DNA from: Candidatus Heimdallarchaeum aukensis
Lineage (GTDB): Archaea > Asgardarchaeota > Heimdallarchaeia > Heimdallarchaeales > Heimdallarchaeaceae
Assembly (NCBI GenBank): GCA_021513695.1
Contig: CP084166.1
Span: 416,001 to 480,000 of the forward strand
Reading direction: 5' to 3'
DNA length: 64,000 nucleotides
Shown: positions 27,296-33,661 of the stretch, in pieces
How the letters are laid out: each line of letters opens with the position of its first letter
How positions within the stretch are numbered: the first letter of the stretch is position 1
Notes under the pieces: generated by a model
Database searches by the model: none
Told to the model about the DNA's origin: nothing
What the model saw: the letters and a program-made list of their open reading frames with translations, nothing else
Translations under genes and position numbers: made by a program

Positions 27296-28411
27296 CTAAT
27301 GTATCCTTAGATTAGGTGGAATAAGGTTTAGAACTCCACAGGCTGGACATTCTATTACTCCATTTTCGTTCATGTCTTTTAGATCTAAGAGTTCTCCACA
27401 ATTCCCTGCACAATACATGGGAATTAATTCTGGTCCTTCCTTTACTCCTTCAATTGCACTATTAATCTTTGGAATAACTTCTTTGTAGAGCCTTTCGTGT
27501 ATTTGATCCACTTCATAACCGTAGACCCATATAGCTATATTTCCACTTTTTTCTTTTCCTGTGATTATAAGTTCAACTATAGAAATATCTTTTTTTCCGA
27601 TTTGGGAGACAAACATCAGGTTTCCAATGAAATTTTCACTTGTATCCATTACTATCTGTTCGTTCACTGTTTTATAAGAATCAAATAAGGTTTTTAAAAC
27701 TTTAAAAGCGACTTTTGGCTTTGCATGGAATTCTATTGATCTTCCTAATGAATCGAGCTTGTTGTTCTTTAATTCCATTAAAGCTTCATAATAACCATTT
27801 TCTATTCTTTCTTTAAGTATTAAAGCTCGTTCCTCTCTTTTTTTGTAAGCTTCATAGATTAGTTCTGTAAATTCAGCTTGTTTTTTCTTAACTATTGTAA
27901 ATTTCGTTCCTTCATGTATCTTTACAGGGGGAAAAGGCAAGCTACCTATTATTTGAGACTGAACAATATATGGTTCTCTTAAAGTTGAAGGAACAATAAA
28001 GCTTAACGAAGTACCGTAATCGATTATTTTTCCAATGTTTCCCTCTCTTACTATTGAACTCCAATCTCCTCCAGGAATTGTAACTGTATCTGGAACAGCC
28101 AAAAACACAACATCTGCTCTCGGGGGAGCAGAAGATATTAAAGCTGTTACTTCTTCTCCATCACCTATTTCTCCTGCAATTCTTTTGTCCAAGTATATTA
28201 AAGGATTTTTTCCTTTTTTTACTATCTCATTGATTTCAGCAAAAACTGAACTAGTCCTTCCAATTGTAGAAGAAAAGAGAAGAGCATATTTTTCATCATC
28301 TGCAAGTTCTAATTCAGTATCTTCTGGTAAAACTATACCTATACCGTTTCTAAAAACTAGTTTAACTTTACATGTAACCGTTTTCACATTCCTCTCTAAG
28401 AAAATCCTCAC
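27296..28411 (-). CDS. CDC48 N-domain-like (double-psi barrel plus beta-clam) protein with a C-terminal zinc ribbon and no ATPase domain (tentative)
   Basis: 371 aa with a GTG start. The segment IYLDKRIAGEIGDGEEVTALISSAPPRADVVFLAVP...VKIHEGTKFTIVK resembles the substrate/adaptor-binding N-domain of CDC48/VAT. The C-terminus has CAGNCGE...CPACG, i.e. two CxxC pairs. Confidence 0.35.
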   Translation of the reverse strand: MRIFLERNVKTVTCKVKLVFRNGIGIVLPEDTELELADDEKYALLFSSTIGRTSSVFAEINEIVKKGKNPLIYLDKRIAGEIGDGEEVTALISSAPPRADVVFLAVPDTVTIPGGDWSSIVREGNIGKIIDYGTSLSFIVPSTLREPYIVQSQIIGSLPFPPVKIHEGTKFTIVKKKQAEFTELIYEAYKKREERALILKERIENGYYEALMELKNNKLDSLGRSIEFHAKPKVAFKVLKTLFDSYKTVNEQIVMDTSENFIGNLMFVSQIGKKDISIVELIITGKEKSGNIAIWVYGYEVDQIHERLYKEVIPKINSAIEGVKEGPELIPMYCAGNCGELLDLKDMNENGVIECPACGVLNLIPPNLRIH

Positions 28412-30829: not shown

Positions 30830-31693
30830 GTGAAAGATATGAATGATAAAAAAAGATACTTAAGGTTAAAGAATTTAAAAGAATTTGGAGTAGATATTAC
30901 TTGGGAAAATCTTTTTTCAAAAACCGTTTTATTTGCAGGAGTAGGTGGAGTAGGAAGTATTGCTGCTGAAATGTTTGCTCGATGTGGAATAGGAAAAATG
31001 ATTTTGATAGACTTAGATATTGTAGAAGAAGTAAATTTAAACAGACTATTTTATACTCAGGAAAATATAGGAAAGCCAAAAGTAGAAGTAGCAAAAGAAA
31101 TTTTAACAAAAATTAATAGAGACGTGGAAATTGAAACATATCATTCTGATATCTGTGCAATCGATTTTGAAGAAAAATTTGAACAATTGATAAAAGAATC
31201 AGATTTAGTTATTTCTAGTTTAGACAATATACCTGCAAGATTATATATTAATGAAAAATGCGTTCAACTAAGAAAAGAGTATATCGATTCAGGAGCAAGC
31301 AGATCAGGTTTAGGAGGATATGTTCATTTAGTTATTCCATTTAAAACTGCTTGCTATCAATGTACAGGTTCAATAGATTTAGGAGAAAAAAAGCATGGAG
31401 AACCATGTACTGCTTCTTTACCTTCTACAATAGCTATTATAGCTTCACTCACAGTGGAAATTGCACTTAAACATTTGTTAAATTTTGGAGTGATTCCTGA
31501 TTATATCGGTTTTAACGCTTTGACCGACCAGTATATAATACAAAAGATGAATAGAGATCCTTCATGTTATATATGTGGAGAAAGAAAAACGAATCTAAAA
31601 GAGCAGAGGAAATCTTTGCAAGAAATTGATGAATTAACGGAAGGAAAAACTGTAGATGAGTTAATTCAAAATTTGGATTCTCATGAGAAGTAG
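30830..31693 (+). CDS. UBA5-like (UFM1-activating type) E1 adenylation enzyme
   Basis: 287 aa with a GTG start at 30830; an alternative ATG is at 30839. It has the nucleotide loop [38 protein letters not shown] matches remembered human UBA5 [30 protein letters not shown]. The CxxC pairs ACYQC and SCYIC match the UBA5 zinc site. [11 protein letters not shown] (Cys193) matches the UBA5 catalytic-Cys context [18 protein letters not shown] matches UBA5 LKFLLNFG. Confidence 0.85.
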   Translation: [287 protein letters not shown]

Positions 31694-31706
31694 AACTAAT
31701 TAAAAA

Positions 31707-32765
31707 GTGGTAAGAATGGTTAAAGTTCAAATTTCTAAACATATCTTAAAAGCAATAGAGAAACACGCTATTGAATTTAAAGGAAAAGAAATCTATGGTT
31801 GGTTGTTAGGATACGATAATGGTTCAAATTTGAAAGTTATTGCAAGTGTTCCTTGTAAAATGTACAAAATTCAAAATGAAGTAAGAGCAGAACCATCAAC
31901 AGAAGAAGCTTTTGAAATTGTAAAGAACATTCCTAAAGGAATAGGAATCATAGGTATTTATCATAGTCATCCAAATAAGGTTTATCACAGCGTAACTGAT
32001 GATTTGACAGTAAAACAATATGCTAATGTATATCCTCATTTCTTAAGTATTGTAACAAACGGAAAGGAAACAAAATCATTTCAATTAATAGATAACGATG
32101 TTAAACCAATTGATGTAGGTGAGTTAAAAGAAGAAACTTTAAAGACTCTTACTTTTAAGATACCTTTGAAATATTATTATCCTGAAAATGAGGAATTAAC
32201 GCTAGCTTTCATTTCATCAGAAATAAGAGAATTCTTGGAAAAAGAGTCACAAAACCTAAAACTAATAGCTAATGACAGAGAAATTAAAGATGATGAGAAG
32301 ATAGATTCTTTGACAAAAACAACCATTGAAGTAAAGTTAGAAAGTGCTGAAATTAATTTCAATGAAAAGAAAAAGTATATTTTCTTTAATTTTCATTTTG
32401 ATATGGTTTCTCCACCCAAGAAAACTGTTTCAGATTTAAAACCTCTCTTATTCAATGGCATTAAAGATTCTATGTATTATTACATTAAAAATATAAAATT
32501 AAACAATTCTTTTGAACTACCTTACGAATTTAAATTTGAAATTTCTAATATTCCTTGGAGGTTTAATGTCAAAAAAGACACATGGGATCTAATTCAGTTT
32601 CTTGACATTTTTGCATTTCGAATAAAGTACATGTCATTTAAAAATGAGAAGAAGAGGAACAAAATTCATTCAGAGATAATTAAAATTAAAGAAATTTTAG
32701 AAAAAGACAAATCAGCTTTTGGAAAAATTGATTCGTTATTGGAGGGACTAACGAAAAAGATTTAA
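31707..32765 (+). CDS. JAMM/MPN+ metallopeptidase with a long uncharacterised C-terminal extension
   Basis: 352 aa with a GTG start at 31707; an in-frame ATG is at 31716. The first ~130 aa carry the JAMM motif elements: Glu in KEIYGWLLG, then HSHPNKVYHSVTD (His86, His88, Ser95, Asp98). By my count the His-to-Ser spacer is 6 residues rather than the canonical 7. The remaining ~220 aa have no recognisable motif. Confidence 0.75.
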   Translation: MVRMVKVQISKHILKAIEKHAIEFKGKEIYGWLLGYDNGSNLKVIASVPCKMYKIQNEVRAEPSTEEAFEIVKNIPKGIGIIGIYHSHPNKVYHSVTDDLTVKQYANVYPHFLSIVTNGKETKSFQLIDNDVKPIDVGELKEETLKTLTFKIPLKYYYPENEELTLAFISSEIREFLEKESQNLKLIANDREIKDDEKIDSLTKTTIEVKLESAEINFNEKKKYIFFNFHFDMVSPPKKTVSDLKPLLFNGIKDSMYYYIKNIKLNNSFELPYEFKFEISNIPWRFNVKKDTWDLIQFLDIFAFRIKYMSFKNEKKRNKIHSEIIKIKEILEKDKSAFGKIDSLLEGLTKKI

Positions 32766-32804
32766 AAAGAAAAAAGCTAGAAGAAGAACAATGGGGACAA
32801 AAAA

Positions 32805-33068
32805 ATGGAGTCTTTAAAGAGATTATATTTTACAACAATAGTAGGAACAGAACATAAACAAATACCATTTGAAACACCAGGAAGTATAGTTTTCCACGAA
32901 TTAATTGTAGAAGTTTCAAAAAAGTTTGGAATAGCTACTGAACAAATTGCGATAAGCAGTGAAATGGGAGAAACTCTAACAGTTTCAGATTTTCAATCCA
33001 CTGTGGACGAAATAATAAGAAAGTATGGAACAGCTTTTCAAGTTATTAATCGAGGAGTAGTAGGATAA
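32805..33068 (+). CDS. UFM1-like beta-grasp ubiquitin-like modifier ending in Val-Gly
   Basis: 87 aa. The C-terminus KYGTAFQVINRGVVG-stop parallels remembered mature human UFM1 KHGSELRIIPRDRVG. The middle segment EVSKKFGIATEQIAISSEMG parallels UFM1 FAAEEFKVPAATSAIITNDG. It sits between the JAMM and E2 genes. Confidence 0.7.
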   Translation: MESLKRLYFTTIVGTEHKQIPFETPGSIVFHELIVEVSKKFGIATEQIAISSEMGETLTVSDFQSTVDEIIRKYGTAFQVINRGVVG

Positions 33069-33079
33069 AGATTTTAGAG

Positions 33080-33661
33080 ATGGGGGTTCCAAAGATTAGC
33101 GACAGCGATACTTCAACAGTAAAAGGAAGATGGAGAGAAACACCTGCAGAAAGAGAACTAGTTAAGTTTCCAGAAGCTCTGATAAATATAACTCCAAAGC
33201 ATCCTAAATGGACAGAAAGAGTGAAAATAGAAATTTTAAATCTAGCAAAATATGTTCAGTTTTTACAAAGAAAAGGCGGGCATAGCTGGTTCTTTCTTAC
33301 ACCTAGTAAAGATCCTAAGTACAACTTTATGAAATGGGAAGGATATTTGCAAGTGGCTACAAGACCAGAAATTAGGTTTAAAATAGTAATTCTTTTACCT
33401 GGAAACTATCCAAAATCTTGCCCTAGGGCTTTCATTGAAGAAAGAGTAGTAGAATTTGCAGGAAAGATTTATACCAAAAATGTCTGGGAAGAGCCAAATG
33501 GAGAAAAATATTTGATGATATGTCATGACCACATGAGTGAAATTGACGATATTTGGGATCCAAGGTTAACAATTGCACACTTTTTCATAAGAGAAGTATT
33601 CTATTGGTGGGCAGCTCAACAGAACCTAATAATTGAACATTACGACAAAGGAAAGAAATAG
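33080..33661 (+). CDS. UFC1-like E2 conjugating enzyme
   Basis: 193 aa starting 11 nt after the Ubl stop. KWTERVKIEILNLAKYVQF parallels UFC1 LWVQRLKEEYQSLIRYVEN. LPGNYPKSCP parallels IPITYPTTAP. FAGKIY parallels KTAKMY. LMICHDHMSEIDDIW (Cys148) parallels the UFC1 active site KICLTDHFKPLW. LTIAHF parallels GLAHL. There is no canonical E2 HPN motif, as in UFC1. Confidence 0.7.
   Translation: MGVPKISDSDTSTVKGRWRETPAERELVKFPEALINITPKHPKWTERVKIEILNLAKYVQFLQRKGGHSWFFLTPSKDPKYNFMKWEGYLQVATRPEIRFKIVILLPGNYPKSCPRAFIEERVVEFAGKIYTKNVWEEPNGEKYLMICHDHMSEIDDIWDPRLTIAHFFIREVFYWWAAQQNLIIEHYDKGKK

Follow-up and report, generated by a model that had tools for sequence, protein, structure and literature searches.

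In eukaryotes, UFMylation is carried out by UBA5, UFC1, UFM1, the UFSP1/2 proteases, and the UFL1-DDRGK1-CDK5RAP3 E3. Human UFM1 carries a two-residue extension that is removed, and the tail of human UBA5 (about 75 aa) harbors separate UFM1- and UFC1-binding peptides. Among archaeal conjugation systems, sampylation doubles as a sulfur-transfer system. Sampylation is E2-independent (reviewed in PMC11354881), and the system of Caldiarchaeum subterraneum is of the ubiquitin type, with a RING E3, a canonical UBC E2, and an E1 whose Cys domain is separate (PMC11354881); its CsRpn11 was reported to mature the ubiquitin precursor and to deconjugate ubiquitinated proteins (PMC6043591). In Asgard archaea, ubiquitin-type parts have been described in clusters with Vps22, Vps25, ESCRT-III, and Vps4, the Vps22 being about 28 kDa and one Vps22/36-like gene occurring per genome (Hatano et al. 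2022, PMC9192718).

The view of the UFM1 pathway as eukaryotic, which served as background to the initial annotation of the DNA studied here, has become partly outdated. A 2023 report described prokaryotic UBA5 relatives and the occurrence of UFL1/DDRGK1 among Asgard archaea (PMC10183829). Structure-based screening (Nat Microbiol 2026) identified Ufm1 homologues that were confined, among prokaryotes, to nine major clades of Asgard archaea, and the main text of that report proposed an Asgard provenance for Ufm1 (PMC12962969). In a published phylogeny, eukaryotic UBA5 descends from bacteria and not from Asgard archaea (PMC10183829). UFC1 was called eukaryote-only in 2023.

Layout of the Heimdallarchaeum locus

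In the Asgard archaeon Candidatus Heimdallarchaeum aukensis, a compact operon encoding three relatives of the UFM1-pathway core and a metalloprotease was found in the window, namely the whole stretch of 64,000 nucleotides. The operon and its conserved neighbors are the following:

27296-28411, minus strand: partner X, 371 aa from a GTG (363 aa as annotated)
30830-31693, plus strand: UBA5-like E1, 287 aa, GTG start
31707-32765, plus strand: JAMM/MPN+ metallopeptidase (JAMM), 352 aa, GTG start
32805-33068, plus strand: UFM1-like modifier (Ubl), 87 aa
33080-33661, plus strand: UFC1-like E2, 193 aa
33662-33700, plus strand: T-rich stretch (attattttt...ctattttt...cttttt), read from sequence, directly 3' of the E2 stop codon
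33837-34874, plus strand: partner Y, a Vps22/EAP30-like tandem winged-helix protein, 345 aa
34884-35531, plus strand: SPFH/Band-7 partner, 215 aa, starting 9 nt after gene Y

The four same-strand ORFs at 30830-33661, described initially as lying 11-39 nt apart, were separated by 13, 39, and 11 nt in the ORF list. All motifs quoted at that time were found in the translations, including the modifier end KYGTAFQVINRGVVG before the stop codon and the E2 motifs KWTERVKIEILNLAKYV and LMICHDH, and the numbering of C175, C178, C193, C246, and C249 in the E1 and of C148 in the E2 was upheld by alignments. The four-gene unit was thus confirmed, although the conserved neighborhood proved larger than noted, with three more genes (X, Y, and SPFH). 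The start codons carry a minor uncertainty (GTG 30830 or ATG 30839 for the E1; GTG 31707 or ATG 31716 for the JAMM). The T-rich stretch is compatible with a candidate archaeal oligo-T terminator closing the four-gene unit, in a genome that is AT-rich.

Homology of the E1, modifier, E2, and JAMM

The E1 was shown to possess a ThiF-type adenylation domain (Pfam ThiF, 4.6e-51) with a GxGxxG ATP site and, as in UBA5, to carry its catalytic Cys193 inside this domain and to keep the zinc site (C175/C178/C246/C249). The resemblance to UBA5 noted initially is real: phmmer aligned E1 residues 4-261 with human UBA5 (E 2.4e-51), and the top PDB matches were five UBA5 entries (2.4e-51 to 8.6e-48), compared with 8e-25 for MoeB. 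The E1 sided with UBA5 and not with MoeB, ThiF, or SAMP E1, the PDB scores being 178 bits versus 91 (MoeB) and 79, so that UBA5 led MoeB by about 87 bits, or roughly twice the score, among solved structures. The E1 also stayed under every NCBIfam cut-off (124 versus 275 bits for ThiF, 110 versus 449 for MoeB, and 85 versus 450 for UbaA), and no rhodanese domain was detected in it with Pfam. C175, C178, C193, ASLPxT, and C246 were invariant across 18 Asgard E1s and human UBA5; the catalytic Cys motif was present in 113 of 120 homologues, and several E1 homologues have already been labelled UBA5 by JGI. The C-terminal tail (38 aa) contains a conserved amphipathic motif, TVDELIQNL, which 91 of the 113 homologues share; shuffling gave 2.3 on average. 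This short peptide resembles the UBA5 tail peptides. The tail as a whole falls far short of the UBA5 tail in length and has a single motif, which is a candidate UFM1-binding or UFC1-binding peptide that may serve in E2 recruitment.

The 87-aa modifier, which adopts a beta-grasp fold, terminates like UFM1 in a single Gly after Val, and since this ...RGVVG end directly precedes the stop codon, the protein would, unlike UFM1, be already mature as made. The Pfam Ufm1 match that had been expected for it stayed under the cut-off (E 0.061; 13.7 bits versus 27), and an exhaustive HMMER search with a narrow modifier-family profile did not reach eukaryotic UFM1. UFM1 nevertheless came first by family profile, hhalign, and structure. 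The profile of 36 family sequences returned UFM1 for all of its top 12 PDB matches (E about 0.005) and paired the final Gly with UFM1 G83, i.e., the end of mature UFM1, while hhalign against human UFM1 gave 93.2%. Furthermore, a Foldseek search with the AF2 model (pLDDT 91.2) placed UFM1 in the top 11 positions (TM 0.81-0.93; ubiquitin about 0.7), with MoaD, ThiS, and SAMP absent from the top 50 structural neighbors. The three approaches thus agreed in grouping the Ubl with UFM1 and not with ThiS, MoaD, or SAMP. Because the Pfam and narrow-profile searches failed, this assignment rests on the weak profile match and the predicted structure; the modifier is UFM1-like weakly by sequence and clearly by predicted structure. 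The terminal Gly was invariant in the 36-sequence alignment, and most family members end exactly in ...VG or with tails of 1-5 aa.

As initially stated, the 193-aa E2 translation contains no HPN, a feature shared with UFC1, and the protein was found to have a UFC1 fold and to align with the UFC1 active site. Its catalytic Cys148 lies within an invariant M-I-C-H motif, and "AGK" (127-129) occupies the position of the UFC1 TAK motif, of which the Lys is retained. The E2 cleared the Pfam UFC1 cut-off by only 1 bit, and it differs from UFC1 in that its N-terminal part is longer by about 25 residues and about 10 residues are inserted ahead of the catalytic Cys. Cys148 and His149 were invariant in 21 homologues with identities down to 43%. 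In several metagenomic proteins, including P0011 and P0017, the Ubl and E2 are joined in one polypeptide, and 4 of 43 Ubl-family representatives matched Pfam UFC1.

The JAMM has a catalytic domain at about residues 5-125 (Pfam Prok-JAB, 4.9e-8; JAB, 8.6e-8) with an intact active site (E28, H86, H88, S95, and D98), and these E...HxH...S..D residues were kept in 9/9 homologues from syntenic loci. For its C-terminal portion of about 220 residues, no relatives were detected outside the JAMM's own family. The closest solved relative was the Rpn11-like deubiquitinase of C. subterraneum (6fjv, E 1.4e-5).

Conserved neighbors and related systems

Beyond this locus, the cluster was present at six or more Asgard loci from different classes. 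Loci of the Heimdall, Hod, and Loki/Prometheo types carried the gene set in clustered form, and an Odin-type contig contained X, E1, and JAMM before its end; across the syntenic classes, E1 identity was 47-50%. Given this clustering elsewhere in Asgard archaea and the natural Ubl-E2 fusions, the four-gene arrangement is not a chance juxtaposition.

Partner X has a GDW motif that is invariant and, at its C terminus, a zinc ribbon with four Cys (C334, C338, C355, and C358). It gave no match in Pfam, NCBIfam, or PADLOC; a relation to CDC48_2, VAT-N, or a LysW zinc ribbon was hinted at only weakly. Genes for its homologues (about 360 aa) directly adjoin the E1 gene in other Asgard classes, as demonstrated by BLASTP values of 1e-36 to 1e-146 against the E1-adjacent genes of loci L002, L005, L007, L008 (Hod), L009 (Odin), and L010 (Loki). 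Partner Y matched Pfam EAP30 (2.8e-8; 34.2 bits, cut-off 26.8) and is extended at its N terminus by a helical region of about 125 aa; the best PDB matches of its family profile were human Vps22/SNF8 (3.9e-9) and yeast Vps22 (0.003). Y matched Vps22 rather than UFL1, this profile giving no UFL1 or DDRGK1 match in the PDB. In L002 and L005, homologues of Y adjoin the cluster, and in L007 and L010 they lie farther off; homologues of the SPFH protein (Pfam Band_7, 8.5e-12) flank the cluster in L002, L005, L007, and L010. Within the cluster, no homologues of UFL1, DDRGK1, or CDK5RAP3 were found. The initial interpretation is supported; none of the computational outcomes named as refuting it was obtained. 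Its wording "complete cascade" is an overstatement, as the cluster contains no UFL1/DDRGK1-type E3.

In comparison with UFMylation, the best or only solved relative of the E1, E2, and Ubl is in each case the eukaryotic counterpart, whereas the Asgard genes are arranged as a prokaryotic operon, a JAMM metalloenzyme is encoded instead of a UFSP cysteine protease, and zinc-ribbon, Vps22-like, and SPFH neighbors are present instead of UFL1, DDRGK1, and CDK5RAP3. The C. subterraneum ubiquitin operon is likewise a compact archaeal unit of Ubl, E1, E2, and JAMM; the Asgard parts, however, are all UFM1-type, and a RING protein is absent. SAMP/UbaA/HvJAMM1 sampylation relies on an archaeal beta-grasp modifier and an E1 of the ThiF family, with a JAMM as deconjugase, and the locus encodes proteins of these families; unlike sampylation, it has a conserved UFC1-like E2, an E1 failing the UbaA model, and a modifier that is UFM1-like rather than MoaD-like. 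As in the Asgard ubiquitin-ESCRT clusters (PMC9192718), a Ubl-conjugation module stands beside an ESCRT-II-type Vps22/EAP30 winged-helix protein; Y, however, is longer (345 aa), is paired with an SPFH protein, and neighbors a UFM1-type cascade, and the annotated part of the window contained no Vps25, ESCRT-III, or Vps4.

Proposed pathway and alternatives

We consider it likely that the cluster encodes a protein-conjugation system that is native to Asgard archaea and homologous to the UFMylation core of eukaryotes. It may be a forerunner of the eukaryotic pathway or a sister system to it; the published derivation of UBA5 from bacteria (PMC10183829) speaks against an Asgard origin. In such a system, the E1, presumably a homodimer like UBA5, would adenylate the C-terminal Gly87 of the modifier using ATP and then carry it as a thioester on Cys193. 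The conserved tail motif of the E1 would recruit the E2, to whose Cys148 the modifier would move before being handed to lysines of target proteins. The JAMM may stand in place of the UFSP cysteine proteases as a counterpart in job of UFSP1/2, trimming modifiers with C-terminal tails or E2 fusions and also stripping the modifier from targets. The best candidates for a layer of E3, receptor, or target, which would probably act at the membrane, are the zinc-ribbon X, the Vps22-like Y, and the SPFH scaffold.

Alternatively, the UFM1-like module could tag phage or host proteins upon infection, as antiviral defence of the Bil/CBASS-Cap2 kind. Its four functions (Ubl, E1, E2, and JAB deubiquitinase-like peptidase) are those of BilABCD and resemble CBASS Cap2-Cap3, the E1 adenylation domain matched Cap2-type "E1-E2" defence models at up to 1.2e-18, the JAMM weakly matched JAB models from defence systems, and a gene for a DNA methylase is located 4 kb downstream. 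Some Ubl-family members elsewhere are also fused to TIR (P0040) or Hint + LRR (P0047), domains typical of immune proteins. However, the Ubl, E2, and X matched no PADLOC model, BilA ranked 44th for the Ubl (TM 0.61), and BilC reached E 0.19 for the JAMM; the lack of Bil models in PADLOC 2.0 (2023) weighs little alone because that release predates the Bil papers. Moreover, the synteny of the cluster with X, Y, and SPFH across Asgard classes resembles vertical core inheritance rather than a patchy island, and the window neighbors are ordinary genes (ABC transporter, CoaBC, and surface proteins). We regard a defence role as unlikely.

Less probable again is an evolutionary relic in which conjugation was lost and the E2-like protein acts as a non-catalytic, UEV-type binder. 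One protein in the E2 cluster bears the database name "ubiquitin-conjugating enzyme E2 variant", Pfam UEV matched weakly (E 0.085), and the E2 start codon is disrupted in Ca. H. endolithica; yet that frame is otherwise open with 95% identity, and the invariance of E2 Cys148/His149 and of the terminal Gly of the Ubl, the prevalence of the E1 catalytic Cys motif, and the whole active site of the JAMM homologues all argue against such a loss. The slimmest chance falls to a SAMP/Urm1-like dual-function sulfur carrier, in which a MoeB/ThiF-type E1 and a MoaD/ThiS-like protein would serve cofactor or tRNA thiolation and E2-free conjugation. SAMP/UbaA/JAMM systems are common in archaea, the E1 belongs to the ThiF superfamily (ThiF, MoeB, and UbaA models, 1e-24 to 1e-36), and a desampylase model matched the JAMM weakly (8e-5). 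This reading conflicts with the E1 scores far under the curated cut-offs and twice as high for UBA5 as for MoeB, with the missing rhodanese domain, with Ubl structural neighbors that are UFM1 and then ubiquitin, and with a dedicated, co-encoded E2 that has an invariant catalytic Cys and is at times fused to the Ubl.

For the UFMylation-like conjugation system favored here, no earlier description of the UFC1 relative or of the operon was found in the literature searched, and both appear undescribed. The Asgard Ufm1 homologues reported in 2026 probably belong to the same family as the 87-aa Ubl; the main text of that report mentions neither UBA5, UFC1, and JAMM nor an operon or synteny, and the present analysis goes beyond it with the enzymes and their gene cluster, the fusions of Ubl and E2, and the conserved partners (PMC12962969). 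These results suggest that the "eukaryotic" UFM1 pathway may already have been put together in the archaea related to eukaryotes.

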